From: a virus
Lineage: Duplodnaviria > Caudoviricetes
IMG/VR virus record: IMGVR_UViG_3300048590_000302
Coordinates: 1 to 51,934 of that record
Reading direction: 5' to 3' (one strand)
Length of the DNA stretch: 51,934 nucleotides
The position numbers and the translations under genes are program-made. Under the pieces are notes generated by a model. The model worked only from the letters and a program-made list of their open reading frames with translations, ran no database searches and was not told the DNA's origin. The first letter of the stretch is position 1. Each line of letters opens with the position of its first letter. Positions 1 through 32,473 of this stretch are shown piece after piece.

Positions 1-42
1 TTGCATTCCTTGACGACCTCTTCGGAGTGGTTGCCTCCCCTC
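1..42. repeat. Imperfect terminal direct repeat, left copy (35/42 identical to 51893-51934)
   Basis: ttgcattccttgacgacctcttcggagtggttgcctcccctc versus ttgcattaaatgaagacctcttaggagtggttggctccccac. Confidence 0.85.
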
Positions 43-191
43 ACGCACTCGCGGCAGATCCATCGGTTGAGGGAGTCGAGTTTCATGTGGAGGCATGCTG
101 GGCCATGGATGGGGCAGTCGAGGCGCTTTGGTCGTTCCCTTCGCATGAGTTTTGCGCCCTTGCCGGTGTAGGCTGGCCTCTTGTCGGACAT
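1..191 (-). CDS. 5' part of an 89-aa Cys/His-rich protein that continues across the circular junction into 51814-51892
   Basis: AGGAG RBS then ATG at 191; MSDKRPAY...CPIHG...CREC...KEC continues in frame as KRLYHHYYYY...AAHG*, with the stop overlapping the next start. Confidence 0.7.
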   Translation of the reverse strand, partial: MSDKRPAYTGKGAKLMRRERPKRLDCPIHGPACLHMKLDSLNRWICRECVRGGNHSEEVVKEC

Positions 192-377
192 GGTGTTGTC
201 TCCTTGCTGTGAGCGGGGATTTCCCTTTATAGCGGGAGGTTGGTGTCGGGGCAACGAGGGGATTTTGGGCCCGTGGGGTGTACTAATTCGACACATGCGC
301 CGGGTTTGGTACCCTGCGGGGGGATAATAGGGCTCACGCCAGCGGAACTCGGGTCGGTGATGAAGCATTTTACCCGC

Positions 378-406
378 TTGACCCTTGGGGTATCGCCAGC
401 CATAAC
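378..406 (+). promoter_or_regulatory. Possible sigma70-like promoter for the modification/packaging operon
   Basis: TTGACC-17 nt-CATAAC in the divergent intergenic region. Confidence 0.3.
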
Positions 407-479
407 ACGCCTCCGGGCCGGGTTCCGCGATCGAGGAAGGTCGTCGTCGTCTCCTGTCAGTGGGCTTGGGTGGCGGAAT

Positions 480-565
480 TTATTTGATGGATTGCCCCCT
501 CTCAGGATAAATTGACCGCATACCCGCTCATAATCACTGGGGAATCCTTATTTGAGGGATTGCCC
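480..565. repeat. 18-bp direct repeat upstream of the ParB-N gene
   Basis: TTATTTGATGGATTGCCC (480-497) and TTATTTGAGGGATTGCCC (548-565). Confidence 0.6.
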
Positions 566-583
566 TCCACGGAGGTTTTGTCG

Positions 584-1360
584 ATGGCCCGTAAGAAGAC
601 TGCATCCCCGGAAGCCGCTCCTGCTCAGGACTTGGGCACGGGGGCCGCCGCGCAGCCCCGGTTTCAGATTGAGATCGCCCCGATGGATTCGATCGTCCCG
701 TATGCCCGCAACGCCAAGCTGCACACCGACGAGCAGATATCGGAGATCATGGCGAGCTTTCAGGAGTTTGGCTTTATCAACCCGCTCCTGCTCGACGCCA
801 AGGGGTCGATCGTCGCCGGGCATGGTCGTTTCAAGGCGGCTCAGCGCCTTGGTTATACCGAGGCTCCCGTGATTCGTCTCGGGCATCTTTCCCCGGCGCA
901 GGTCAAGGCGCTTCGCATTGCCGACAACCAGCTCGGTCTTAAGACGGGATGGAATGCCGACCTGCTTTCCCTGGAGCTGACGGAGATGGCCGACGACGGC
1001 TACAACATGGAGCTGCTGGGGTTTGGCGATCAGATTGACGAGTGGCTGACGGCCTCGGCGGATCCGGCGCCATCGGATGATGATGGTTCCGAGGGCGGGG
1101 GCGCCCCGGCAGGTGGGGTTTCGTCGTCGTCGTCGGAATCTTCGGATGATCTTATTCGCGGCGATGTCGAGCGGATTGTGCTGCTCGTGGACAAGAAGGA
1201 CTTTATCAAGGCGGCGCAGGTCATCACCGAGATCAAGGAATCGGAGGGACTGGAGAACGTCACGGAGGTTTTTCTTCACCTGCTGATGGAGTGGAATCGT
1301 CTTCATGGGAGCAAGCGCCCGTCGCCCATTCCCGAGGGAAGCAGCGATGCGGCACATTGA
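584..1360 (+). CDS. ParB/Srx N-terminal domain protein of the type linked to phage DNA modification
   Basis: PYARNAKLH...SFQEFGFINPLL...IVAGHGR...ALRIADN...W motifs; GGAGG RBS before ATG 584. Confidence 0.9.
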   Translation: MARKKTASPEAAPAQDLGTGAAAQPRFQIEIAPMDSIVPYARNAKLHTDEQISEIMASFQEFGFINPLLLDAKGSIVAGHGRFKAAQRLGYTEAPVIRLGHLSPAQVKALRIADNQLGLKTGWNADLLSLELTEMADDGYNMELLGFGDQIDEWLTASADPAPSDDDGSEGGGAPAGGVSSSSSESSDDLIRGDVERIVLLVDKKDFIKAAQVITEIKESEGLENVTEVFLHLLMEWNRLHGSKRPSPIPEGSSDAAH

Positions 1361-2237
1361 GGTCGAGCGTTTGATTGAGGTTCCGAAGTCGCGCATCGGA
1401 GATGCACCGAAGGAATCCGATGCAAGTATTTACGTGCGGGAGCCGACTGTCATTACGCACCTCGGCCAGCCGATTGCGCTCTATGGGGATATTTCCGACT
1501 TCGACTTTCGACAGTTACTATCCTGGTGCAAGCGTGCAAGATTTGGCCTGTTCCGTCGCATGGCGGTCCAGCAAGGCAAGGAATGGTCCCTGCCGAAGTC
1601 CCTCGAACTTTTCTGGGGGTATACCACTGGAAGGCACGTCTATACGGCTCCTCCGGGCGTCACTCGCACGACCAAGGACGATCCCGACATTTACCGGGAG
1701 TCGATCATCCCGCTCTATCATCGACTGCGGCGGGAGTTTGAACTGCACATGCCTGCGCAGTACGTCTCGCAGTTTGAGCGGCTAACTTCTCAGATCCGTC
1801 CTGACTGGCGAATTGATGGCGGCATGTATACGCAGGTCGTATGCAACAAGGGGAATGTATGGAGTTACCATCTCGATCAGTCCAATTTCCGTGATTCCTG
1901 GTCTTCCATGGGAGTGTTCAGCCGTGGGTGTGTTGGCGGCAACACTATCATCCCTGCTCTGGATATGCGATTTGCCATGCAGGGGCAGCGGTTCCTCATC
2001 TTTGAAGGGGCGCGACTCATCCACGGCGTCACACCGCTGACGAAGGTCAAGGCGGATGCCTACCGATATTCATTCGTTTACTATGCGCACGAACAGATGG
2101 CGAAGATGGACACGCTGGAGGTGGAGCTGCGGAAGTTTCGCCGGTCGCTCGACAAGCGCTTCGATGCTGATTATCAGGCGACGCGCGATGCCAACGTGCA
2201 GAAGTTTCGCCGCAAGATGAGGAAGAGCGGACTATGA
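1347..2237 (+). CDS. TET/JBP-family 2OG-Fe(II) dioxygenase
   Basis: HLD (HxD)...GGNTIIP...LIFEG..LIHGVTPL...RYSFVYY double-stranded beta-helix motifs typical of phage TET/JBP. Confidence 0.85.
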   Translation: MRHIEVERLIEVPKSRIGDAPKESDASIYVREPTVITHLGQPIALYGDISDFDFRQLLSWCKRARFGLFRRMAVQQGKEWSLPKSLELFWGYTTGRHVYTAPPGVTRTTKDDPDIYRESIIPLYHRLRREFELHMPAQYVSQFERLTSQIRPDWRIDGGMYTQVVCNKGNVWSYHLDQSNFRDSWSSMGVFSRGCVGGNTIIPALDMRFAMQGQRFLIFEGARLIHGVTPLTKVKADAYRYSFVYYAHEQMAKMDTLEVELRKFRRSLDKRFDADYQATRDANVQKFRRKMRKSGL

Positions 2238-3082
2238 ATCTATACTCGCATCCCCTGGTTGCCATTCCCTCGCATCGTCGCGCGGCGGGCCTGCTGGAGC
2301 ACACGCTGGCCTTTCTTCGGCGGATGGGCTTTCCCCTCTCGCGGGTCTTCGTCTTCGTCTCGGACGCGGATGATCTTAAGGACTACAAGGCGGCGATCCC
2401 GGATGCCGATGGGCTGCACCTCGTTTTTGCAAAAAAAGCCTCCTCGCTCCGCTCGAAGTTCAACTTCATTCGGCGGTACTTCGCGCGGGGGCAGCGCGTG
2501 TTTCTCCTCGAAGACGACGTGATGAGCCTCGTCGAGAAGATGGGCGAGAACTCCGTGCGCGAGTGTGCAGACTTCGAGGCATTTCTTCGCGAGGGCTTCG
2601 ACCTCATGGAGTCGGTTGGTGCCCGCATCTGGGGGGTTTCCCCGCACGCCAACGCCTTCTACATGACGAACAACAATTCGATCAACTTCAAGTTTATCGT
2701 GGCTCAGGCATTTGGATTCGTCGCCGACGACGACGCGCGTCTCGACATCACGCTCGACGGGAAGAGCGACTATGAGCGGACGATTCTCTACTATTTAGCC
2801 GACGGGAGGACGCCGCGGCTGAATCGGTTCGGGGTGAAGCCGTTTGCCAGCTACAAGGGCGAGGGTGGACTTCAGGCGGAGTTTGACCATCGGACGCGGG
2901 TTTATAAGGAGGAGCAGGCCGTCTCCTATCTCACGAGCCGGTATTCGCTCCTGTGCTACCGCAACGAGGGGAAGAAGAGCGTGATGCCGGAGATCAAGTT
3001 TCGTCCGATCAAGGGCAGTCACAAGGCGGTCGTGGCCGCGCAGGCCGCTCGTGACAAGGAACTCGGTTATGGTAAGAACTAA
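2234..3082 (+). CDS. TET-associated glycosyltransferase (TAGT/GREB1-like, GT-A fold)
   Basis: VAIPSHRR N-terminus, FLLEDD (DxD-like), KSDYERT, GGLQ motifs; ATGA overlap with the TET gene. Confidence 0.8.
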   Translation: MNLYSHPLVAIPSHRRAAGLLEHTLAFLRRMGFPLSRVFVFVSDADDLKDYKAAIPDADGLHLVFAKKASSLRSKFNFIRRYFARGQRVFLLEDDVMSLVEKMGENSVRECADFEAFLREGFDLMESVGARIWGVSPHANAFYMTNNNSINFKFIVAQAFGFVADDDARLDITLDGKSDYERTILYYLADGRTPRLNRFGVKPFASYKGEGGLQAEFDHRTRVYKEEQAVSYLTSRYSLLCYRNEGKKSVMPEIKFRPIKGSHKAVVAAQAARDKELGYGKN

Positions 3083-3881
3083 TGACGGGGGGATTTCCGG
3101 CGCATGGTTCGAGCGCGATGGCGGGATGCTGACCAAGCATTGTGCGAATGCCCGCGAGCAGGTGGGGCAGCTCGTTTCCATGCCATCGTATATGACCGCA
3201 CCGACGATCGTCCGCGTGGGGAGCGATCGGTATACGATGCGGTTTATTGATGGCAGTTCACTTCTCGAACTCTGCACGAAGCGTCGTCTTGTGGCAACGT
3301 ATTTCGTGCAGCAACTGCTTACGATCATTGATCAGAATCGTCGTCAGTCGATGCTGGTTGAGATGGAGCACTTTACGCGCAAGGTGAGGTCGATTGCGTT
3401 TCAATCGCCGACCCTTCCGCGCCCGCTTCGCGGGACTCTCTGGCTCTCGTGGCAGTCGATTCTTGACATGATGCCCGATGAGATTCTGCTGCCGATGGGG
3501 TTTGCGCATGGGGATCTTACGCCCGAGAACATCATCATCGACCAGCGGATGACGCCGCACTTTATTGATGCGATTCCCTCGCCTGTCTCCACCATTCTTC
3601 AGGACGTGAGCAAGCTTCGTCAGGAGTTTCTTTATGGATGGTCGTCTGTTCGTCACGGTCTTGATTACGATCGCCGTCACTATCAGGGGATTGTTGACGG
3701 GAGATTTCCCACGACGCGGGAACTTCTCACGCTGGACTTCGTTACGATTGCACGGATAGCCCCTTATGCGGGTGCCAATGAGAGGATTTCCGAATGGATT
3801 ACGCAGCGTCTCTGCCAGATCTTGTCGTGCTATGCGCAGGCACTTCCGACCGCTACGGTGGACGCCCCAAGGCTCTCCTGA
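3069..3881 (+). CDS. APH/choline-kinase-like phosphotransferase
   Basis: HGDLTPENII catalytic loop, HFID, QDVSKLRQE. Confidence 0.8.
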   Translation: MVRTNDGGISGAWFERDGGMLTKHCANAREQVGQLVSMPSYMTAPTIVRVGSDRYTMRFIDGSSLLELCTKRRLVATYFVQQLLTIIDQNRRQSMLVEMEHFTRKVRSIAFQSPTLPRPLRGTLWLSWQSILDMMPDEILLPMGFAHGDLTPENIIIDQRMTPHFIDAIPSPVSTILQDVSKLRQEFLYGWSSVRHGLDYDRRHYQGIVDGRFPTTRELLTLDFVTIARIAPYAGANERISEWITQRLCQILSCYAQALPTATVDAPRLS

Positions 3882-4852
3882 CCCATCCGTCCGGGTTTAT
3901 CATGGCTGTGGAATCGGTGCGTGGGCTTTATGGGTATGGTCGTCTTCATGTGGTGGTTCGCCATCTGTCGCATGTGGATGTGGTTCGTCGTGAATTTCTC
4001 GCTGGTGGTCTTGGCCTGACCGAGGTCAATGTCGTCGTCGTCGGTGAGACGTCCTCTCCTCTTGAGTCGGCACGGCGATTTGTACGGTTGTCTGGTATTC
4101 GCGGTCCTGTGGCCTTCAAGGATTGTGACAATCATTTTCGCATGCGGGTAACTCCTGGTGACTACGCTGCGGTGGTCTACATGCCTGAGCAGGCATCGTT
4201 TGTACGGCGTGACAACAAGAGCTACTGCTCATACTCGGGCTTCTCGCGCAAGCCTTCGGACTGGGCGTGTGCCGGTCTTTACTCGTTCTCGGAGGCTCAG
4301 GATCTTCTGGAGCTGTCGGGGGAGTGGACGGACTTTTGGCAGGTGATGCCTACGACTGCGGTCCATGACGTGGAGCATTATCTTGATTGGGGAACGCGGG
4401 AGGATTGGGTTAGGTTTCGTCGGCGGTATGGGACGGTGTTCGTGGACATCGACGGCGTCCTTGTTCGCAATGGGTCGAGGTCGTTTGCTGACCGGCTTTG
4501 GGGTGATACGGCAGTGATTGCCGGGTCGATCAGGAGGGTCAACGCGCTTTACCATTCCGGTCGGTGGCATGTGGTGCTGGTGACTTCGCGTCCCGAGGAG
4601 GTGCGGCGGGAGACCGTTTCGCAACTGGCGGAATTGTCGTATCATCGTCTAATGATGGGACTTCCAGCCGCCCATCGCATCCTGATTGGCGACGATGATA
4701 GTTTCGGGTCCATGGTCCATGCCGTGCGAATGACGAGGGACGAACCCGACTGGAGACATTTCAACGACATCACCGGAGACTTCCCCGATGACAGATCAAC
4801 CGAAGAAGAAGATGGGCCAGCCGACGAAGTATCGGAAGGCGATTTGCGATGA
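3794..4852 (+). CDS. Sugar-phosphate nucleotidyltransferase fused to a HAD phosphatase
   Basis: N-terminal VVLCAGTSDRY..RPK, FKDCD and DWGT motifs; C-terminal FVDIDGVL, VTSR and IGDD HAD motifs. Confidence 0.85.
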   Translation: MDYAASLPDLVVLCAGTSDRYGGRPKALLTHPSGFIMAVESVRGLYGYGRLHVVVRHLSHVDVVRREFLAGGLGLTEVNVVVVGETSSPLESARRFVRLSGIRGPVAFKDCDNHFRMRVTPGDYAAVVYMPEQASFVRRDNKSYCSYSGFSRKPSDWACAGLYSFSEAQDLLELSGEWTDFWQVMPTTAVHDVEHYLDWGTREDWVRFRRRYGTVFVDIDGVLVRNGSRSFADRLWGDTAVIAGSIRRVNALYHSGRWHVVLVTSRPEEVRRETVSQLAELSYHRLMMGLPAAHRILIGDDDSFGSMVHAVRMTRDEPDWRHFNDITGDFPDDRSTEEEDGPADEVSEGDLR

Positions 4853-5288
4853 GATCGTTGAGTTCATGGCTACGGGGCGTTCGATCTCGGCGTTTGCCGC
4901 TGAGAAGAAGCTGTCGCGCGACATTCTCTATCGGTGGTGTGAGCGCTACCCGGAGTTTGCTGATGCGATGGCAGCAGGCAAGGAGGCGTCCCAGCGCTGG
5001 TGGGAGGCTTTGGCCATGGCTGTGGCGAGCGGTTCGGCTGCCGGACACAAGACGTATAAGAATGCCAACTCGGGGATGGTGATGTTTATGATGAGTCGTC
5101 GCTTCCCCGACTACTACAAGAAGTCCGACGGCGGACCAATCGAAGGCGAGGGCAATGGCACAACGGACGACAACGTCAACGAAGAGGAACTTTCCAACGA
5201 GATCGACCGCCTCATCGCGCTCCGCGATCGACTCCGATCGTCTAAAAAGACTGCTGATGCGCGAGATCGCGGACGAGGCAAGAAGTGA
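4788..5288 (+). CDS. terS: Terminase small subunit
   Basis: GQPTKY..ICDEIVEFMATGRS..HTH..YPEFADA; directly upstream of terL. Confidence 0.85.
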   Translation: MTDQPKKKMGQPTKYRKAICDEIVEFMATGRSISAFAAEKKLSRDILYRWCERYPEFADAMAAGKEASQRWWEALAMAVASGSAAGHKTYKNANSGMVMFMMSRRFPDYYKKSDGGPIEGEGNGTTDDNVNEEELSNEIDRLIALRDRLRSSKKTADARDRGRGKK

Positions 5289-6672
5289 TCTTCTGGCCTT
5301 TATCCAGGTTCTCAATCCCCGCTATCAGGTCAACTGGCATCATGCCGCCATCTGCGATCGTCTGACCCGTCTTGCTTCTGAGGAGGGTCAGCGCCTGATA
5401 ATTTCGGTGCCCCCTCAGTATGGGAAGAGCGAGATCGTGTCGCGGCATTTTCCTGCGTGGATGCTCGGACGAATCCCCGACGGCAAGATCATCCAGGCGT
5501 CGTACTCGGCGGACCTTGCCAACAGCTTTAACCGCGACTGCCAGGGGATCATGGAGTCGGAGGCGTATCGGACGATCTTTCCCCAGACGCAGATCTATCC
5601 CTTCTGCAAGGGGATCAAGCGCACGCAGAACGAGGTCCAGACCTCGCGTCGTGGCTACCTCTTTACCGTGGGGGTTGGCGGCGCCACCACGGGTCGGACG
5701 GCGAATCCTCTTTTTATCATCGACGATCCAATCAAGGACATGGTCCAGGCCCTCAACGAGAAGCACCGCCAGCGCATCATCGAGTGGTATCACGCGGTCG
5801 TCGAGACTCGTCTTTCCCTCGGGGCGAACGTCATCATCATGCACACCCGCTGGCATCAGGGGGATCTTGCCGGATATTTACAGGCCGAGGCTGCCAAGGA
5901 CCCGACCGCCCCTCAGTATGAGGTGATCAACTTTCCTGCGCTTGCCGAGCCGCACTTTCCCCTCCACGCTGACGATCCTCGTCAGGTGGGGGAGGCTCTG
6001 TGGCCTTTATACAAGGGGGATGCTGCTGCTCAGCAGAAGCTTCGCAAGTCGGTGGGGAGCTATATCTATAACGCGCTCTTTCAAGGTCGTCCGCAGTCGG
6101 AAGGCGGCAACATGGTGGATGCCGCGTGGTGGCGCTACTATGAGGCGCTGCCGCCGCTGGATGCGTTTGAGGAGATGCTTATCAGCGTTGACTGCGCGTT
6201 CAAGGATATCAAGGCGTCGGACTTCGTCGTCGTTTCCGTGTGGGGGAGGATTGGTCGCGCGAAGTATCTCGTCGATCAGATTCGTGGCCGCTACAACGTG
6301 CAGAAGACCATGCACTGGATCATGAACACAGCGGATAAATACCCCCGCGCCCACGAGAAGTTGATCGAGGGGAAGGCGAACGGTCCTGCGGTGATTTCCC
6401 TCCTCAAGGGGAAGCTCCACGGCCTTCGCGAGATCGACCCGAAGAGCAGCAAGATTTCCCGCGTGGCGGCTGTCTCGCCCATGATCGAGGACGGCGAGGT
6501 ATGGCTTCCCGACCCGAAGATTGCGACCTTCGACGTTCGCGACTTCGTTGCCGAGTGGTCGGCTTTCCCGATGGGTGTCAACGACGACCAGGTCGATGCC
6601 GGCACACAAGCTCTGGACAGATTGTCGCGGGGCGAGAATAATTACCTACGAAAACTTGTTGGGAGAACCTGA
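5155..6672 (+). CDS. terL: Terminase large subunit (start may be 5257)
   Basis: PPQYGKS Walker A, IIDDP Walker B, TRWH, SVDCA and DDQVDA nuclease motifs. Confidence 0.95.
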   Translation: MAQRTTTSTKRNFPTRSTASSRSAIDSDRLKRLLMREIADEARSDLLAFIQVLNPRYQVNWHHAAICDRLTRLASEEGQRLIISVPPQYGKSEIVSRHFPAWMLGRIPDGKIIQASYSADLANSFNRDCQGIMESEAYRTIFPQTQIYPFCKGIKRTQNEVQTSRRGYLFTVGVGGATTGRTANPLFIIDDPIKDMVQALNEKHRQRIIEWYHAVVETRLSLGANVIIMHTRWHQGDLAGYLQAEAAKDPTAPQYEVINFPALAEPHFPLHADDPRQVGEALWPLYKGDAAAQQKLRKSVGSYIYNALFQGRPQSEGGNMVDAAWWRYYEALPPLDAFEEMLISVDCAFKDIKASDFVVVSVWGRIGRAKYLVDQIRGRYNVQKTMHWIMNTADKYPRAHEKLIEGKANGPAVISLLKGKLHGLREIDPKSSKISRVAAVSPMIEDGEVWLPDPKIATFDVRDFVAEWSAFPMGVNDDQVDAGTQALDRLSRGENNYLRKLVGRT

Positions 6673-6674
6673 AC

Positions 6675-8222
6675 ATGCCGCGAGTCAAGTCCTATGGCGA
6701 CAAACACGGCCATACCGCTGTCACCCGAACCGTTCCACGCATCGCCTCCCGCAGCGACAACTGGGAGAACGCCTTTACGGGACTTAATGTCATCGGCAAG
6801 GATAAGCGAACAGCCTCAACGCCTACCGCCCTCATCCTTACGGAGCATCAGGCGGAAGCGCTTTATGCGGCGGACCCTCACGCGGCGAAGATCGTCGATC
6901 TCCTCCCCGAGGACATGACGCGCGAGGGGTTCGACCTTGTTTCCTCCGAGCTGGAGGACGAGGAGATCAAGACGATCGAGCACCACATCACCGACAAGCT
7001 TCATTGGGCCGAGCGTTTCACGCAGGCACTTTCCTGGGCTGACCTCTACGGCGGTTCCGCCATTCTTCTCGGGATCGACGACGGCAGCTCTGATCTTTCG
7101 AGGCCGCTCAACGAGGAGTCGATCATCGCGTTTGACTTCATGACGGTTCTCACCCGCTACGAGCTTCAGATGGAACGTGTGCAGGATGATCCCTCACAGG
7201 CCAACTATGGAATGCCGGTGCTCTATAAGATTGTTCGCCGTATTTCCTCGCCGAACTCGCCCGCCCTTGTTCCTCACGAGCGCTTCGTACATGCTTCGCG
7301 GCTGATTCGTTTCGATGGTGCACACCTGCCGCGCGGTGAATTCATTCGCAACGGCTACTGGTCGGATTCGGTTCTTTCCCGCCTCTTCCGGCCTCTTCAG
7401 AACTTCGCGACGACGCATGACAGCGTTGCTTCGCTCATGCAGGATTTTTCCCAGGCAGTCTTCAAGATTAAGAACCTTGCCGACATTCTCTCGGCGCAGG
7501 ATGGCAAGCAGCTTATCAGCGAGCGGATCAACATGGTGGAGCTTTCCCGCTCTCTTATCAATGCCGTGATCATTGCTGAGGATGAGGAGTTTGAGAGGAA
7601 GACGACGAGTCTTGCCGGTGTCGAGGATGTTCTTCGGAAGATGGAGGAGCGGCTTGTTTCCGGGACGCAGTACCCTCACACAATCCTATTGGGCGAAGCT
7701 CCTGGCGGTGGCATTGGCGACAAGGGCAAGAGCGAGCATCGGGACTATTATGATTTCGTTCGTCGCAAGCAGATGTCGCGTCTGATGCCAGGGCTGAAGC
7801 GATTTATGCGCTTCGTGATGCTTGCTAAGAATGGTCCCACGAAGGGAAGGATACCTGAGAACTGGTCACTTAAGTTTCGCCCGCTGTGGCAGCAGACCTT
7901 GACGGAGACACTGGAGCAGCGGCTTAACCAGGCGAAGATTGATACAATCTATATTAACGACGGGGTTCTTTCCCCTGACGAGGTTGCCGTCTCGCGCTTC
8001 GAGTCGGGCGAATATAGCCACGATCAACGGCTCTACTTTGATCGTAACGAGGAGGAGCCTCTTCCGACGATGGAGGAACAGCTTGCGATGGAAGCTGCTG
8101 CCAAGGCCAATCCGAAGGCTGATGATCCGAAGGATGGTTTGAAGCCGAAGACGAAGGAAGAGGACATGGTGAAGACGAAGACGACGCCTTCCGGTGTGAA
8201 GAAGCGCAGCAGTCGTTCCTAA
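6675..8222 (+). CDS. Portal protein (DUF1073/HI1409-like)
   Basis: Follows terL; IVDLLPEDMTREG, LYGGS, VHASRLIRFDG, LLGEAPGG, FRPLW. Confidence 0.88.
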   Translation: MPRVKSYGDKHGHTAVTRTVPRIASRSDNWENAFTGLNVIGKDKRTASTPTALILTEHQAEALYAADPHAAKIVDLLPEDMTREGFDLVSSELEDEEIKTIEHHITDKLHWAERFTQALSWADLYGGSAILLGIDDGSSDLSRPLNEESIIAFDFMTVLTRYELQMERVQDDPSQANYGMPVLYKIVRRISSPNSPALVPHERFVHASRLIRFDGAHLPRGEFIRNGYWSDSVLSRLFRPLQNFATTHDSVASLMQDFSQAVFKIKNLADILSAQDGKQLISERINMVELSRSLINAVIIAEDEEFERKTTSLAGVEDVLRKMEERLVSGTQYPHTILLGEAPGGGIGDKGKSEHRDYYDFVRRKQMSRLMPGLKRFMRFVMLAKNGPTKGRIPENWSLKFRPLWQQTLTETLEQRLNQAKIDTIYINDGVLSPDEVAVSRFESGEYSHDQRLYFDRNEEEPLPTMEEQLAMEAAAKANPKADDPKDGLKPKTKEEDMVKTKTTPSGVKKRSSRS

Positions 8223-8322
8223 GACTAAAAGGAAAGCCGGGCCAACCCACGGGAAGCCCGGCCCTCGCCTACAGTTTTACGGAATCAGTGATCCCTTAAC
8301 TTTATCAGAACGAGCGTGCATC

Positions 8323-9204
8323 ATGCCACAACTTCGCCAAGGCCCACTGAAGAGTGCCGTCGGTCGCCCCCGGAGGATGCCCGTTTCCCTTCATCCGAGG
8401 ATGCTGGAGAGGCAGTATGATCGACTTGTCACCCGGCTTGCGTTTGAGATGCTTGATATCGTCCGTGCGGACATCATTCCTCAGCTTGCGGAGCTTCGGT
8501 CTGTCTTTCGTCGTGAGTTCGGCAACAGTCGGTTTGATGATTTTGGTGACGATCTTCGTCGTCTTCTGGACCGCTTCAAGGCGCGGTGGACGGAGGCTGT
8601 TTCGCGTCGTCGTGAGGAGATCGAGGAGATTGGTATTGATGTCAATGCGTGGGGTCGCCGCCAGACGGCAAAGATCCTCGAGCGCTCCCTCGGCAGTCAG
8701 CTCCTCGCGTCGGAGGCGGACCTCGACCGGCAGGTGAAGCTTTGGATTGCCGACAACGTCTCCAAGATCCAGGCCATTGGCGATCTTGAGGCGACACGCA
8801 TCCAGGATTTGATTGTGGATTCGCTTCGTCAGGACCGCCCTGTTGAGGCGATTGCCGAGGGTTTGCGGGATCTCTGGCGCAACCAGACGGATCGTCGTCA
8901 GTCGTGGGTTCGCGGGGTTTCCCCGACGGTTCGCGCCCGCCTTGTGGCAATCGACCAGATCGGCAAGCTTCATAGCCAGTTGACGAAGTACCGGCAGGAG
9001 TCGATGGGGGTTCGTTTCTATCGGTGGCGGACGATGCTCGACAACAAGGTTCGCCATAGCCACAAGGCTCTGGAGGGGCAGGTATTTGCGTGGAGGCCGG
9101 AGGACGGTCCTCAGCCGCCCGAGGGGCATCCTGGGATGCCACCCAACTGCCGCTGTTCGGCAGAGCCGATCCTTTCCGATGCGATTCCTGACGTCGAGGA
9201 GTGA
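8323..9204 (+). CDS. Head morphogenesis protein (SPP1 gp7 / Mu gpF-like)
   Basis: RARLVAIDQIGKL, YRWRT..D.KVRHSH..LEG, HPG..NCRC. Confidence 0.9.
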   Translation: MPQLRQGPLKSAVGRPRRMPVSLHPRMLERQYDRLVTRLAFEMLDIVRADIIPQLAELRSVFRREFGNSRFDDFGDDLRRLLDRFKARWTEAVSRRREEIEEIGIDVNAWGRRQTAKILERSLGSQLLASEADLDRQVKLWIADNVSKIQAIGDLEATRIQDLIVDSLRQDRPVEAIAEGLRDLWRNQTDRRQSWVRGVSPTVRARLVAIDQIGKLHSQLTKYRQESMGVRFYRWRTMLDNKVRHSHKALEGQVFAWRPEDGPQPPEGHPGMPPNCRCSAEPILSDAIPDVEE

Positions 9205-24787: not shown

Positions 24788-26119
24788 ATGAGCAACCGCA
24801 TCATCAAGCAGTATTCAGCCGACTCAACCTGGACAGCCCCTGGTGGCGTCAATCGTGTTCTCGTTTCCATCTTCGACTCGCGCGAGCTTACGCAGAAGAT
24901 CCGAGCCGGATTTTCAACGTCGCTTGCTCTTGGGCAGGACGGACAGCTTTGGACCTGGGGTTATAGTGGATCAGGGGAGCTGGGAGACAGCACTGTTGTA
25001 TCGAAAAGCTCCCCCGTCATCCCATCGAACCCGTGGCCGAAGTTCAAGAGCGTGGCAAACGGAGCCTATCACTACCTCGCAATCGACGAGCAGGGGCGCT
25101 GCTGGGCATGGGGTTCCGGCCTTAACGGTCGTCTTGGCAACAATGCGGCCTCCAACCAATCTCTCCCTGTTCAGGTGGCCACCGGGGTTCGTTTCAAGAT
25201 GGTTGCCGGCGGTCAGGATCACAGCGTTGGAATTGACCAGGACGGCTACCTTTGGGCCTGGGGAGATAATACCGGCTATCAGCTTGGTGACGGGACGAAC
25301 GTAGCTAAAAGCACGCCTGTTCGCGTTTCCTCGAACCTCAAGTTCAAGTTCGTCGAAGCCGGCAACAGTTTTTCCCTGGCAATCAGCGAAGCCGGCAACG
25401 CCTATGCCTGGGGTTCCAATCTGGACGGACAGCTTGGTTTGGGCGACACCACAACGCGCAGCAGTCCGGTTCAGGTGACGACGCCAGCCAAGACGTGGAA
25501 GATGCTTTCCGCCACTCTCGCTGGAACGTCGTTCTTCCTTGCTGACGACGGCACTCTCTATGCTTCCGGTGAGAACGGCAGCTTTGAACTGGGAATTCCC
25601 GGCAGCCCCAATGTCAGCACTCCCACGCAGGTTTCCGGTCCTGCAACGTGGATGCACATTTCCGCTGCCAGCAACATGGTCCTTGGCCTTGATTCCAACG
25701 GTGCGGCTTGGGCCTGGGGCTTGGATCTTGATGGCGAGATGGGAGTCGGCAACGTCACCTACACGGATGTTTCCAGTCCCTCGGCTGTGATTGGTGGTCA
25801 TACGTTCATTCACTGCAATGCCGGCGACTTTTTCTACGCAGGACTCAAGTCTGATGGGACGATGTGGGTTTGGGGGGATTCACTTGATGGTGCCGTTGGC
25901 GTCGGCAGCACAACGATTCAACGCTCGCCCGTGCAGATGGTTGGCAACCAGAGGTTTGACACGATGTTCGACGAGGTCTTTGTTGCTCGCCGGTATATTG
26001 ATGTCACTCCTGGAACATCGTATGCGATCACGGTTGGAGCTGGTGTCGTGAAGTTTGGCGATGAGATCATCTGTCACAACTCAGGCTATAACATCATGGT
26101 GCTGGATTACGTGAAATGA
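24788..26119 (+). CDS. RCC1-repeat beta-propeller protein, probably tail-associated
   Basis: About seven repeats of G..H/S..DG..WAWG.N..GQLG..SSPVQV. Confidence 0.9.
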   Translation: MSNRIIKQYSADSTWTAPGGVNRVLVSIFDSRELTQKIRAGFSTSLALGQDGQLWTWGYSGSGELGDSTVVSKSSPVIPSNPWPKFKSVANGAYHYLAIDEQGRCWAWGSGLNGRLGNNAASNQSLPVQVATGVRFKMVAGGQDHSVGIDQDGYLWAWGDNTGYQLGDGTNVAKSTPVRVSSNLKFKFVEAGNSFSLAISEAGNAYAWGSNLDGQLGLGDTTTRSSPVQVTTPAKTWKMLSATLAGTSFFLADDGTLYASGENGSFELGIPGSPNVSTPTQVSGPATWMHISAASNMVLGLDSNGAAWAWGLDLDGEMGVGNVTYTDVSSPSAVIGGHTFIHCNAGDFFYAGLKSDGTMWVWGDSLDGAVGVGSTTIQRSPVQMVGNQRFDTMFDEVFVARRYIDVTPGTSYAITVGAGVVKFGDEIICHNSGYNIMVLDYVK

Positions 26120-27108
26120 ACCCTACCCCATCACACAAGGATACAGCAACCATTCCTGCATGGGAGATCCCGAGCTTTCGGGTCTTCCATGCGCTTCAGC
26201 GCGGCACCGACAAGCGCTGGCTCTTCAAGCTTCCCGGTGGACTTGGTGATGTCGTCTGCGCGGAGCCCGTCATTCGTTTTGCCGCCGAGCACTTCCTCGG
26301 TGTCTCCATCTCGATCGTCACGCATCTTCCCGAGCTTTTCTCCCATCTCCCCGTCCATATTCATCGTCCCGGCGAAGTGAACGAGCAGGACTATTATGTT
26401 CTTGAAACAATCCGCCCGTCGCAGAGTCTCAACTGGGAATTCTACACACACCCTCTTCTTCACTGCGTTGACTATCTTTCTGTATCGACGCTTCGCTGCC
26501 AGCTTCCCAATGCGGCGAAGGAGGTTCGGCTTCCTGAGTTTGACGATCTGACGAACCCCATAGTGCGATCCATCGTGAGAAACAGCGACAACTTCGTCGT
26601 CGTCCATCCTGGTCGTCACTGGCAGTCGAAGACGTTTCCCGCGTCGTGGTGGAACGCGGTTATCGACTGTCTTCACGATCGGGGATTTGACGTTTGCCTT
26701 GTCGGCAAGCACATCGACGAGCGCCTTGGTTATGTTGCTCTTGATCGCTCGGATGTCATCGACCTTCGCGACTCGCTGTCGATCCCGGAGCTGGTATTTC
26801 TCCTGAAGGGCTGCCGCTATCTTGTCACGAACGATTCGAGCCCGATCCACATTGCAGCGGCGGGGCAGGCATTTATTGCCTTCGTTGCGAGTTGCAAGCA
26901 TCCTGACTTTCTGTATCACTGGCGTCAAGGCCAGTACGGGTGGCGAATGCGGGACTTTGGCCGCGATGGACTTTATAATTATATGAGCTGGTCGCCGGTT
27001 CAGAAGGATGAGGTTTCCATCGAGTTCTGTACGCCCGAGATGATGGAGCGGATTCTTCCCGAGCCGGATGAGATTGCCTTTCACCTTTCCCAACTTAGGA
27101 GTGTTTGA
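26116..27108 (+). CDS. Glycosyltransferase family 9 (heptosyltransferase-like, GT-B)
   Basis: GGLGDVV..P, VVVHPG...KTFP, VTNDSSPIHIAAA. Confidence 0.88.
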   Translation: MNPTPSHKDTATIPAWEIPSFRVFHALQRGTDKRWLFKLPGGLGDVVCAEPVIRFAAEHFLGVSISIVTHLPELFSHLPVHIHRPGEVNEQDYYVLETIRPSQSLNWEFYTHPLLHCVDYLSVSTLRCQLPNAAKEVRLPEFDDLTNPIVRSIVRNSDNFVVVHPGRHWQSKTFPASWWNAVIDCLHDRGFDVCLVGKHIDERLGYVALDRSDVIDLRDSLSIPELVFLLKGCRYLVTNDSSPIHIAAAGQAFIAFVASCKHPDFLYHWRQGQYGWRMRDFGRDGLYNYMSWSPVQKDEVSIEFCTPEMMERILPEPDEIAFHLSQLRSV

Positions 27109-27109
27109 T

Positions 27110-27760
27110 ATGCACACCCGCGTCATCGTCGTCGGCAATGAGCCTGTCGAGAAGCTGATTCAATCCCTCGATCAACTGATTGCCACTCGCGAGAGGTCGT
27201 TTCGAGCAGGGGAATACTTCGTCAACCTCCGCTATCCTGATGCCAATCCTGAGATGGCTCGCGAGCTGTTGATCACAAAGTGCGAGCGCAATCGCATTCG
27301 CTACTGTGAGGCACCTCAAGGCTATGATGATGTCATGGCGTTCAACTGGGTGCTTTCCCATATTCTCGAGTGTCCCGACGACGACCTGGCTGTCTTCTAT
27401 CCAGGGACGAGCTTTCCCTCTGTTCTTAACTGGGAGCGTGCCGTGACTGATTCCATTCGCGGTGATACGGACACGGTCTGGTCGAGTCTTCTTTCTGATG
27501 AAGTGAAGGGCAACCTTAATACTCCAGCCAACCGTGACGAGCGGACGCTTCCCAATGGCCGCAAGGTCTGGCATCCGAAGCAGCCGCAGGCGGTGGCTGT
27601 TTCCGCGTTTCACTATGGATGGCTCAAGTCTCAGGGTGGTCTTCCCGCTCGCGGTACAAATCCCAACCAGGGTATCGGCCAGCAGCTTCATGCGAAGCTT
27701 GGCAGCAAGAAGCGGTCGTTTCTCCCGGACTTCACCGAGAGCAATATTCTGAGGACATGA
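27110..27760 (+). CDS. Hypothetical protein, possibly a degenerate GT-A fold glycosyltransferase
   Basis: Adjacent to GT9; alpha/beta pattern and WLK..GG motif, but no clear DxD. Confidence 0.4.
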   Translation: MHTRVIVVGNEPVEKLIQSLDQLIATRERSFRAGEYFVNLRYPDANPEMARELLITKCERNRIRYCEAPQGYDDVMAFNWVLSHILECPDDDLAVFYPGTSFPSVLNWERAVTDSIRGDTDTVWSSLLSDEVKGNLNTPANRDERTLPNGRKVWHPKQPQAVAVSAFHYGWLKSQGGLPARGTNPNQGIGQQLHAKLGSKKRSFLPDFTESNILRT

Positions 27761-28248
27761 TGGACGTCACTTCTCTCGTCCGTTCGTGGACGACGCACAT
27801 TTCCCCGGAGATCCAATCGGTAATTCTCGCGATGTGCGTTCGCGAGAGTTCCCTTGATCCGTGGGCCATCCGCTATGAAAGCCACTACTCCTGGCCGTGG
27901 CAGGTCAAGGAGAACGCCCGGGATCTTAATATCTCGTTTGACACCGAGCTTCAGCTTCAGAAGTTTTCCTATGGGCTTCTTCAGGTGATGGGTGGGACCG
28001 CACGGTGGCAGGGTTTCAAAGGTCCTCTGATGCAGCTTTGCTGTGACCATCGTGCGGCCTTCGACCATGGCCTGAATTACTTTCTCTATCAGTTTGAGCG
28101 TTACGACAAAAACATCGTCAAGGCGCTCTGCGCGTACAACGGTGGAAACGTGAAAATCGTCGATGGAAAATACAAGAATCAGACCTATGCAGACGAGGTT
28201 CTGCAGTTTCGCAATCAGTTGAAAAAGCACTGGGAGATGAGCGCATGA
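27757..28248 (+). CDS. Lytic transglycosylase (SLT family), candidate endolysin
   Basis: RESS catalytic Glu, SYGLLQVM, AYNGG. Confidence 0.9.
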   Translation: MMDVTSLVRSWTTHISPEIQSVILAMCVRESSLDPWAIRYESHYSWPWQVKENARDLNISFDTELQLQKFSYGLLQVMGGTARWQGFKGPLMQLCCDHRAAFDHGLNYFLYQFERYDKNIVKALCAYNGGNVKIVDGKYKNQTYADEVLQFRNQLKKHWEMSA

Positions 28249-30489: not shown

Positions 30490-30711
30490 CTATGCTTCTG
30501 CCTCAGCTTCCTCAAGGCGACGAATTTCATCTTCAATATAGAATATTGCCTTCTTCAGGTCCTGGATCTCTGTGTCCTTGCTTTTTCGACCTGCACGGGC
30601 AAGGTACTTGATTGCGTTGCCACGTTGAAAGTTTAGCTTCCAATCGTTGATGACGTCGATAACCTCAAATCGGCCCAGATTGTAATGCTTGGGATGCTCA
30701 ACGTGTTCCAT
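30490..30711 (-). CDS. DUF3310 (SaV-like) protein
   Basis: VEHPKHY..EVIDVI..F..GNAIKYL.RAG.K..QDLKKA.FY. Confidence 0.88.
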   Translation of the reverse strand: MEHVEHPKHYNLGRFEVIDVINDWKLNFQRGNAIKYLARAGRKSKDTEIQDLKKAIFYIEDEIRRLEEAEAEA

Positions 30712-30730
30712 GTCGTCGTCCTTTCTCTCT

Positions 30731-31024
30731 TTAGGTGGGGGTAAACTTGGGCAACCAACCGAAGCGCTCGGTATGTATTTGAGTTGTCTGAGGAAGATAC
30801 CACGGCATACCGCACCTATCGCACGCACACTTTGCTCCCTTCACTATTGATGGTCCCTCGAAGTGATCGGAGGTCATCCGATCGCCTTTGTTGAGTTGCT
30901 TGACGACTGTGGCGATGAACTGCTTGCAGTGGGGGCAGCATATTCTTGTGCCGACCTCCAGGAATGGTTTCTGGTCTGGTTCGTTACTGTAGACGCGCTG
31001 GACGACGCCTTGGGGTTCCGTCAT
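30731..31024 (-). CDS. Zinc-ribbon protein
   Basis: CPHC...CDRC. Confidence 0.7.
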   Translation of the reverse strand: MTEPQGVVQRVYSNEPDQKPFLEVGTRICCPHCKQFIATVVKQLNKGDRMTSDHFEGPSIVKGAKCACDRCGMPWYLPQTTQIHTERFGWLPKFTPT

Positions 31025-31805: not shown

Positions 31806-32255
31806 TCAGGCTTCCGGTGGGCATTCGCTGCCGCTTCCCTCCGGTGGCTTTGGCTGATCCCACCAGGGCTTGAAGCGTTCGATTTCATCGACGGTGGGCA
31901 TCGTCCCGGTGAAGAGAATTGCGCGATCGTCGATCGTGAGAAAGGCCGGTGGCTTCTCCGCAGCGATCGACACGCAGCCCGATATGCCCCACTCTTCGAG
32001 GGCTTTCGCCACGGCCTCACGCCCTTCGTCGGTCGAGGCTCGCGACGTGTGGACGACGATTTGATAGTGTGAGGCGTGGATTCTTATCCATTCGATTGTT
32101 GCCTTAACTGGACCGCCGTCGATGACGGTGGGTCCTTTCCATCGCCGGTAATTGTGAATCACGCCGTCGAAGTCGAGGCATATCAGTTTTCTCATCATTC
32201 CGTTCTCGCGCCTTTTCTTTGGGGCCTTCGTTGTCAGGCCGAGGATTACGGTCAT
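31806..32255 (-). CDS. HAD-family phosphatase/nucleotidase-like protein
   Basis: CLDFDGVIH, HTSR, KPPA..IDDRA. Confidence 0.85.
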   Translation of the reverse strand: MTVILGLTTKAPKKRRENGMMRKLICLDFDGVIHNYRRWKGPTVIDGGPVKATIEWIRIHASHYQIVVHTSRASTDEGREAVAKALEEWGISGCVSIAAEKPPAFLTIDDRAILFTGTMPTVDEIERFKPWWDQPKPPEGSGSECPPEA

Positions 32256-32473
32256 AGCTCCTTCCTTCCGCTGTCGAACTCCTGCTTTGATATCTGCTTC
32301 CACCATGTAATTACGATGTCCTCTGCCGATGGTCGGAAGAATTCGTTTCTGATGTTCTTCAGAATCGCTTCCTTGGCCTTGGCAATGTGAAAGTAGTCCA
32401 CATTCGACGAGAAGCAGCAGTCGCCTATGTCAATTCCTGGAGCCTTGTAGTTGACGAACCAGTAGGTTTCCAT
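32252..32473 (-). CDS. Hypothetical protein
   Basis: Tightly packed in the leftward operon. Confidence 0.65.
   Translation of the reverse strand: METYWFVNYKAPGIDIGDCCFSSNVDYFHIAKAKEAILKNIRNEFFRPSAEDIVITWWKQISKQEFDSGRKEL

Follow-up and report, generated by a model that had tools for sequence, protein, structure and literature searches.

The left end of virus record IMGVR_UViG_3300048590_000302 carries five overlapping plus-strand genes at positions 584–4852. They encode a ParB-like protein, a TET/JBP-family dioxygenase, a TET-associated glycosyltransferase (TAGT), an APH-fold kinase, and a fusion of a nucleotidyltransferase (NTase) with a HAD-type phosphatase. The window analyzed here is the whole record, which is linear, 51,934 bases long, and 100% complete by CheckV. 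From sequence comparison and analogy with published systems, we consider it fairly probable that these genes form a post-replicative thymine hypermodification cassette with its own supply of nucleoside diphosphate (NDP)-sugar donor. In the scheme suggested by homology and gene context, the dioxygenase, assisted by the ParB-like protein, would oxidize thymine in phage DNA to 5-hydroxymethyluracil (5hmU), and TAGT would then add a sugar to the 5hmU hydroxyl to give a base-J-like product. Comparative genomics and published analogues suggest that the kinase and the NTase-HAD protein would make the NDP-sugar from a host sugar phosphate: anomeric phosphorylation would give a 1,n-bisphosphate, the HAD domain would strip the distal phosphate, and the NTase domain would convert the sugar 1-phosphate to the NDP-sugar. 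The likely purpose is to shield phage DNA from host nucleases. The features of the cassette are as follows.

584–1360, + strand: ParB-like protein, 258 residues (PF02195; phrog_15396/620)
1347–2237, + strand: TET/JBP-family Fe(II)/2-oxoglutarate (2OG) dioxygenase (5mYOX), 296 residues (PF12851; phrog_6059; motifs)
1869–1871, 1875–1877, 2022–2024 and 2064–2066, + strand: codons of TET H175, D177, H226 and R240
2234–3082, + strand: TAGT, 282 residues (PF20691; phrog_25200)
3051 (GTG start, 276 residues) or 3069 (ATG start, 270 residues) to 3881, + strand: APH/choline-kinase-fold small-molecule kinase (PF01636, model, motifs)
3507–3530 and 3567–3569, + strand: codons of the kinase's catalytic H147-G-D149..N154 and of D167, the metal-binding Asp
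3794–4852, + strand: NTase-HAD fusion, 352 residues (alignment, profiles, folds)
3794–4423, + strand: N-terminal NTase domain, predicted sugar-1-phosphate nucleotidyltransferase (15-sequence alignment; 4evw)
3836–3871, + strand: codons of the NTase signature, within the 88-nucleotide overlap with the kinase gene
4424–4852, + strand: C-terminal HAD-type phosphatase domain (weak PF25109/PF18143 matches; motifs)
4445–4456, + strand: codons of HAD motif I, D218-x-D220-G

Proteins encoded by the five genes

Profile matches were read against the curated Pfam cut-offs (TET 34.9 bits, TAGT 27.5, APH 23.2, NTase 27, and HAD 27.6), which are reached by ParB and TAGT; the TET, APH, NTase, and HAD matches fall short. 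The gene identities given in a preliminary description of this DNA are upheld by conserved motifs, by profiles, and by the folds of the kinase and the NTase. For the dioxygenase, that description had named an HxD..H..R motif. In an alignment of 13 sequences, H175, D177, H226, and R240 are invariant and S242 is nearly so, matching the HxD..H triad and the 2OG arginine of the family, and the profile built from these sequences finds TET2 (6.4e-7) and the Naegleria Tet (5e-3) in the PDB. The profile was required for this match, as the single protein compared with PDB sequences by phmmer gave chance matches only. The protein itself matches PF12851 with E 5.6e-8 (32.6 bits) and phrog_6059 with 2e-23, and the TET cut-off is passed by a 57%-identical homologue (41.1 bits) and by the relative in locus L015 (46.6 bits). 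About 45 residues extend past the last conserved (YYA) block, as they do in the aligned ParB-linked relatives. The TET protein of locus L051 stops at the YYA block, yet the ParB (A6) profile reports a ParB-like match in that locus.

The ParB-like protein scores 26.3 bits against PF02195 (ParB_N), right at the Pfam cut-off, and 1e-46 against phrog_15396/620. It consists of a nucleotide-binding domain (NBD) at the N terminus, an acidic and serine-rich linker, and a small conserved C-terminal domain (CTD). When it is aligned with six ParB proteins encoded next to related TET genes, the NBD (G79..A85, D114-N115) and the C-terminal block are conserved and the linker is variable. A classical DNA-binding (helix-turn-helix) domain is apparently missing, as judged by length and alignment only. 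The protein is a putative activator of the TET dioxygenase. Prediction of a complex between the two proteins gave a score of 0.02 and a mark of 0.32, which speaks neither for nor against binding.

TAGT scores 46.5 bits against PF20691, a Pfam family named after its association with TET/JBP genes, and 2.7e-25 against phrog_25200. With the TET motifs and profile on one side and a TAGT match over the Pfam cut-off on the other, the earlier reading of these genes as a dioxygenase-plus-glycosyltransferase pair holds. Invariant columns in a three-sequence alignment of TAGT are R16, the acidic, DxD-like E93-D94-D95, and D179/E181/R182; compared with PDB sequences, the TAGT profile gave weak acetyltransferase matches only (E 0.011). 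Around the best 80 of 88 viral TAGT relatives, TET was found in 28/80 loci (A5 profile) and ParB in 12/80 (A6 profile). The modest share of loci with TET suggests that TAGT-family enzymes may target products other than those of TET in large viruses. Many TAGT relatives lie on contigs of giant-virus metagenome-assembled genomes and on contigs of 100–570 kb.

The kinase matches PF01636 (APH) with E 4e-4 (20.6 bits), and many of its relatives pass the cut-off. Residues K23, H147-G-D149, N154, and D167 are invariant in a 40-sequence alignment. The structure model (pLDDT 92.5) is closest to APH(4)-Ia (Z 16.7, root-mean-square deviation (rmsd) 3.4, 241 aligned residues), maltokinase (Z 15.0), and LicA choline kinase (Z 14.6). 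A Foldseek search with the model returned APH(3')-Ia (8.8e-6) as well as maltokinase, LicA, and glucosamine kinase; fructosamine-3-kinase, methylthioribose kinase, and N-acetylhexosamine 1-kinase (NahK) are further fold neighbors. Exhaustive searching yielded 244 distant relatives, and word-based searching yielded 0. Against the kinase domain of RB69 gp52, used as a single-sequence template, the kinase profile gave an hhalign probability of 94% (E 1e-7). We propose that the enzyme is an anomeric kinase of a sugar or sugar phosphate, and the fold searches of the kinase and the NTase do not single out the sugar.

The NTase domain reaches 18.4 bits against NTP_transf_3. In the 15-sequence alignment, G16, S18, R20, and K26 of the signature A15-G-x-S-x-R20..K26 are invariant, and D110-x-D112-N113 is conserved. 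The profile matches 4evw, an NDP-sugar pyrophosphorylase, with E 3e-14, and the structure model finds the same entry (Foldseek 1e-10; Z 19.6, rmsd 2.4, 193 aligned residues), followed by IPCT, UDP-glucose pyrophosphorylase (UGPase), RmlA, KdsB, LicC, HddC (Z 15.5), and MurU. Because the N-terminal NTase signature is conserved, we place the start at the ATG at 3794, which is backed by 14 homologues; the database gene call P0001 (316 residues) begins at Met37 and loses the signature. With this start, the 88-nucleotide overlap with the kinase gene is the longest among the related loci examined. NCBIfam gave no GmhB, HldE, or HddA/C assignment, the best GmhB match being to a related histidinol-phosphatase domain (E 0.098).

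The HAD domain scores 20 bits against HAD_PNKP and matches PF25109 and PF18143 weakly. Motif I (D218-x-D220-G) and T264 of motif II are kept in at least 90% of the 15 sequences, and motifs III and IV are not firmly placed. The domain's profile matches the phosphatase domain of Pnkp1 (4xrp, 1e-4) and 1xpj (0.16) in the PDB, and the domain matches phrog_1238 with 4.7e-4. The structure model is moderately confident, with low confidence at residues 225–237 and 299–309, and the unconserved acidic C-terminal tail of the protein is encoded in the overlap with terS. On viral contigs, relatives of the NTase-HAD protein were missed by a scan with the single protein and found by the alignment search; word-based homologue searches returned three NTase-HAD relatives and one TET relative besides the record's own proteins. 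The ESM Atlas holds many NTase-HAD fusion clusters, mostly viral.

A free-standing second HAD phosphatase is encoded on the minus strand at 31806–32306 (166 residues, DFDGV motif I, phrog_1238 2.9e-12). Its direct BLASTP comparison with RB69 gp51 was not significant (E 0.21); this protein may be the actual phosphatase acting on the bisphosphate, or one that acts on nucleotides. The annotation of RB69 gp51, 'phosphoheptose isomerase', is also the label of phrog_1238, the family matched by both HADs; from that label, we infer that phrog_1238 contains RB69 gp51. Near the second HAD gene, in the early-gene region, lies a DUF3310 protein gene (30490–30828, minus strand; PF11753 3e-14) whose PHROGs label is 'nucleotide kinase'.

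Recurrence of the cassette and its genomic setting

The kinase and NTase-HAD genes travel together. The kinase gene adjoins the NTase-HAD gene in 12/12 viral loci found with the NTase-HAD alignment and in 10/10 cellular loci, the latter from Paenibacillus, Prochlorococcus, Halieaceae, Mesoterricola, Nanoarchaeia, Woesearchaeota, and an alphaproteobacterium. The same is true of all 59 metagenome loci whose upstream DNA spans 900 bp or more and of 72/80 metagenome loci overall; the eight without the kinase are all short of upstream DNA. At least 398 metagenome relatives of the two-gene cassette were found, and the cassette occurs in bacteria, archaea, phages, and giant viruses. Most loci with the pair are glycan-synthesis clusters without TET or TAGT. 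Neighboring genes encode NAD-dependent epimerases/dehydratases, GDP-mannose dehydratase, glycosyltransferases of families GT1, GT2, GT4, GT6, and GT11, Wzx-type flippases, an initiating sugar transferase, sugar O- and C-methyltransferases, carbamoyl-, pyruvyl-, and sulfotransferases, and WavE. Among the relatives are three NTase-kinase fusions (P0089, L010:508-2076, and L099:11758-13932) and one kinase-WavE fusion (P0094). By its gene neighborhoods, the pair is predicted to be a general sugar-activation cassette, and its prevalence in glycan clusters favors donor synthesis over direct action on DNA.

These observations agree with the NDP-sugar donor in the preliminary description, to which the linked pair, the glycan clusters, and the NTase-kinase fusions all point. 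The order of steps proposed there (sugar to sugar phosphate to NDP-sugar) leaves the phosphatase idle. In a published route (PMC13326640), a sugar bearing a distal phosphate is converted to the 1,n-bisphosphate, then by a HAD enzyme to the sugar 1-phosphate, and then to the NDP-sugar. A sugar-bisphosphate route of this kind gives the phosphatase a role, unlike the earlier scheme.

Several loci have a second sugar-activation enzyme beside the pair (L010:508-2076, L099:11758-13932, L005:24-1211, and L005:3352-4995), such as an NTase-APH fusion with AfhE-like architecture or a HAD_2-NTP_transferase fusion. These second enzymes lie near aldolase/transaldolase, RuBisCO-like, thiamine pyrophosphate-enzyme, or cupin genes, whose products could make unusual sugar phosphates.

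The complete hypermodification set is much rarer. The kinase/NTase pair occurs in three of the best 80 viral TAGT loci (L014, L063, and L015), and the set including ParB reappears on five further contigs with its genes reordered, four of these contigs having TET. Viral and metagenome loci together gave one locus with the order of the record and shuffled variants on further contigs, listed here with one truncated copy.

L141: ParB-TET-TAGT-kinase-NTase-HAD, order identical to the record
L140: TAGT-kinase-NTase-HAD, truncated copy
L105: terL-ParB-ParB-TAGT-kinase-NTase-HAD-TET
L063 (= L012): ParB-TET-TAGT-kinase-NTase, no HAD
L015: ParB-TAGT-NTase-kinase-TET, no HAD; terL nearby on the opposite strand
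L014 (= L002): ParB-ParB-TAGT-kinase-NTase-HAD, no TET found; record 23% complete

In each of these loci the TAGT, kinase, and NTase genes are contiguous even as the other genes change position; in L015 the NTase comes before the kinase. This contiguity is the strongest indication that the cassette feeds TAGT. Tandem ParB-like genes stand ahead of TAGT at L105:3788-5343 and L014:4584-5986, and the record has a single ParB. Searching 50,697 records of GenBank phages gave 21 matches for TAGT and a single distant one for the NTase-HAD protein, and the two sets share no record.

In the record, the cassette opens a series of seven plus-strand genes, each overlapping the next, that runs from the ParB-like gene through terL. 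The genes downstream of the cassette are these.

4788–5288, + strand: terS, small terminase subunit (PF20901 1.9e-7; phrog_309 2.8e-20)
5155–6672, + strand: terL
6675–8222, + strand: portal gene, following terL without overlap

Successive overlaps from 584–4852 into terS measure 14, 4, 32 (or 14), 88, and 65 nucleotides, and the claim of five overlapping genes, the last overlapping terS, is borne out by open reading frames on the plus strand at the positions listed. The operon in the preliminary description fares less evenly: shared strand and overlaps agree with it, and promoter and terminator scans of 1–9000 returned sites no commoner than in shuffled sequence. Because those scans stayed at chance level, the operon reading consists of strand and overlaps only. 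The same description had placed the modification possibly during packaging. A terminase gene lies beside the set in 3/6 loci, the record included, and 19% of all 5mYOX contigs carry a terminase (PMC13229309), so the tie to packaging is positional only, and nothing beyond gene position was found for it. Elsewhere, the record has myovirus-like structural genes (sheath, baseplate, and tape measure) and encodes RecT/exonuclease and DnaB helicase. The best terL match has 40% identity, and a DNA-level search of GenBank phages gave no match to 500–8300.

Target base and competing readings

The preliminary description had given the target as a 5-methylpyrimidine. That agrees with the TET and glycosyltransferase assignments and leaves the base unspecified; we consider thymine, giving 5hmU, most likely, by parallel with the ParB-dependent T-dioxygenases already published. 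When the complete record was searched in six frames, with positive controls, neither a C5-cytosine methylase (PF00145) nor a thymidylate-synthase homologue (PF00303) turned up; therefore, neither phage-made 5-methylcytosine (5mC) nor a pre-replicative hydroxymethyl-pyrimidine route is encoded. PF00145 is also absent from three related records. The record of L063, which is complete (68,846 bases with terminal repeats), carries ParB-TET-TAGT-kinase-NTase without a C5-methylase. Thymine is the likely substrate because a complete record has neither enzyme and the ParB gene is adjacent.

Phage T-dioxygenases that need an adjacent ParB were defined by O'Toole et al. (PNAS 2026, PMC13229309), with 5mYOX176/ParB176 as the named pair. 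ParB176-type proteins are described there as an NBD followed by a short structured segment, a ~50-residue disordered linker, and a CTD, without a classical DNA-binding domain, and a C-terminal extension of the dioxygenase is reported solely for the ParB-dependent T-dioxygenase subclass. The genes described here are alike in the adjacent ParB with NBD, linker, and CTD, in the TET extension, and in the lack of a C5-methylase; glycosyltransferases and terminases are frequent neighbors in both cases.

Could the cassette instead act on cytosine methylated by the host, to give glycosyl-5-hydroxymethylcytosine (glycosyl-5hmC) at a few host-methylated sites? Other clades of phage TETs act as 5mC dioxygenases (PMC8256090), and T-dioxygenases oxidize 5mC as well, and iteratively (PMC13229309). 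The published 5mC-type phage TETs, however, bring their own methylase (PMC8256090), whereas a C5-methylase is absent both from this complete record and from the second complete relative. The ParB adjacency and the C-terminal extension also fit the T-dioxygenase subclass, and we regard action on host-made 5mC as rather unlikely. A different proposal keeps the base but changes the role of the kinase and the NTase-HAD protein, which would tailor it after or instead of glycosylation by phosphorylating or nucleotidylating the DNA-bound sugar or 5hmU and trimming phosphate. Such chemistry would yield the phosphosugar base of the preliminary description, a product for which nothing beyond gene position was found. 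The best HAD matches are of polynucleotide-kinase/phosphatase type (PF25109, PF18143, and Pnkp1 4xrp), and thymine hypermodification in other phages runs via kinase-activated 5hmU (PMC8256090). Known 5hmU DNA kinases are P-loop enzymes, not APH-fold, and are tabulated apart in PMC13229309; both profile and fold mark the NTase domain as an NDP-sugar pyrophosphorylase, and the pair stands in plain glycan clusters without TET or TAGT in 10/10 cellular loci and most viral and metagenome loci. Tailoring of the DNA-bound base by these enzymes is thus distinctly unlikely.

The donor could also serve a target other than DNA, with the proximity to TAGT incidental. A GT9 homologue (ADP-heptose:LPS heptosyltransferase family; PF01075 5.7e-14, TIGR02201 1e-8) is encoded on the plus strand at 26116–27108 in the tail-fiber module, between an RCC1-repeat protein (24788–26119) and an SLT transglycosylase (27619–28248), and by its family could attach sugars to virion proteins or to the envelope of the host. 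This gene and the service of most cassette relatives in surface-glycan clusters would fit such a target. In the five other contigs, however, TAGT, kinase, and NTase genes stay together and overlap despite the shuffling of other genes, and none of those loci showed a GT9 relative. We therefore hold a non-DNA target to be highly improbable.

Several points weigh against thymine hypermodification with a phage-made NDP-sugar. In this phage the cassette is known from genes alone, and the record's own TET, APH, NTase, and HAD Pfam scores lie under the curated cut-offs. Likeness to the ParB-dependent subclass consists of context, layout, and the extension, and because T-dioxygenases also oxidize 5mC, host-methylated cytosine could still be a substrate. 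The NTases of L015 and L063 have no HAD domain, so the phosphatase step is not universal, and because the best HAD matches are phosphatase domains of polynucleotide-kinase type, a nucleic-acid-linked substrate is conceivable. No SIS sugar-phosphate isomerase (PF01380, PF13580) was found in the record, with positive controls; therefore, the feedstock sugar phosphate must come from the host. Compared with single-sequence templates, the NTase gave an hhalign probability of 0.6% against RB69 gp53 and the HAD domain a weak 38% against gp51, neither of them significant, so that the cassette is analogous to AfhE/AfhF of phage HY126 and only possibly orthologous.

Overall, the core of the preliminary description stands, namely the gene identities, oxidation followed by glycosylation, and donor supply; its order of steps, its choice of base, its novelty, and its phosphosugar and packaging proposals call for revision. 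If thymine hypermodification with a phage-made donor is correct, a single cassette of ~4.3 kb would unite ParB-activated thymine oxidation, TET-dependent DNA glycosylation, and a phage-made sugar donor, and glycosylated 5hmU would be predicted in a bacteriophage. The adduct would be relevant to how phages withstand restriction and CRISPR nucleases and to enzymatic tools for 5hmU labeling, and the cassette would offer a handle on the conserved, unstudied kinase and NTase-HAD pair of many glycan clusters. More tentatively, the product might be a base-J-like glycosyl-5hmU whose sugar lies outside ordinary host pools and is unseen on a thymine-derived base, and the cassette an uncharacterized NDP-sugar route common to viral DNA modification and cellular surface glycans; we find this bolder version possible and somewhat doubtful.

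Comparison with known systems

In the nucleotide-heptose pathways (HldE/GmhB; HddA/GmhB/HddC), a kinase acts on a sugar 7-phosphate, followed by a HAD phosphatase and then a nucleotidyltransferase, and the kinases have ribokinase or GHMP folds. The order of reactions proposed here is the same, but the record's kinase is APH-fold and no GmhA isomerase is encoded. By analogy, heptose and arabinofuranose provide two published phage precedents for the logic suggested for the three activities.

The phage 'contig 53' cluster, reconstituted by Pyle et al. (bioRxiv 10.1101/2023.12.21.572611; also cited as Cell Rep 2024), needs all three of its enzymes, a bifunctional HAD-APH protein, a cytidylyltransferase, and a glycosyltransferase of GT-B type, to form heptosyl- and diheptosyl-5mC (heptosyl-5hmC). 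That system is alike in needing kinase, HAD phosphatase, and NTase beside a DNA glycosyltransferase, after TET-type oxidation. Compared by description rather than by sequence, it fuses HAD to kinase, whereas NTase is fused to HAD here; it has an enzyme annotated as a cytidylyltransferase, a GT-B enzyme, and 5hmC made by a methylase and TET, and the record has TAGT.

In phage HY126, AfhE is a fusion of an NTase with an APH-fold kinase that converts arabinofuranose 5-phosphate to the 1,5-bisphosphate and acts again later in making UDP-arabinofuranose, and AfhF is a small HAD enzyme that takes off the 5-phosphate (PMC13326640). RB69 gp52:53 and gp51 are their counterparts (PMC13326640, citing He et al. 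and Mahler et al. 2025), and in HY126/RB69 (gp51, gp52:53, and gp55) the UDP-arabinofuranose serves arabinosyl-5-hydroxycytosine (PMC13326640). As in the record, an APH-fold kinase, a HAD enzyme, and an NTase are encoded beside a DNA glycosyltransferase. The fusion differs, being NTase-kinase with a separate HAD in AfhE/AfhF and NTase-HAD with a separate kinase here. HY126/RB69 make their base before replication with a ThyA homologue, whereas the record has no thymidylate-synthase homologue, and the RB69-type phage encodes its own arabinose 5-phosphate isomerase, whereas the record encodes no SIS domain.

The 5mYOX176/ParB176 examples are characterized for oxidation only, and their subclass is chiefly linked with P-loop kinases, amino-acid:DNA transferases, and GATases (PMC13229309), in contrast to the APH-fold kinase and NTase-HAD protein here. 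In the mining of 23,070 5mYOX contigs by O'Toole et al. (PMC13229309), 75 contigs have APH (0.33%), 145 have HAD (0.63%), and 957 have NTP-transferases (4.1%), with HAD neighbors tabulated at 0.2–0.6%. The association of APH and HAD with 5mYOX has therefore already been seen and is rare and unstudied. We found no paper that joins phage 5hmU with a glycosyltransferase, a nucleotidyltransferase, and a kinase. The suggestion in the preliminary description that the modified base may be undescribed was nonetheless overstated, as phage clusters combining the three donor activities are already on record for heptosyl-5hmC and arabinosyl-5-hydroxycytosine and APH and HAD are tabulated near 5mYOX.

Base J of kinetoplastids (JBP1/2 and JGT) is alike in the chemistry predicted here, with TET/JBP oxidation of thymine in DNA followed by O-glycosylation by a GT-A-fold enzyme, and phage GT-A DNA glycosyltransferases have been related to JGT by Pyle et al. 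(bioRxiv 10.1101/2023.12.21.572611). Base J differs in drawing on host UDP-glucose, with neither a ParB nor a donor pathway of its own, and in having a regulatory rather than an anti-restriction role. Because every element of the proposed system has a published counterpart, no new principle is involved. What is new is the combination of a T-dioxygenase, TAGT, and a donor cassette, together with the fusion architecture of an NTase-HAD protein with a separate kinase.

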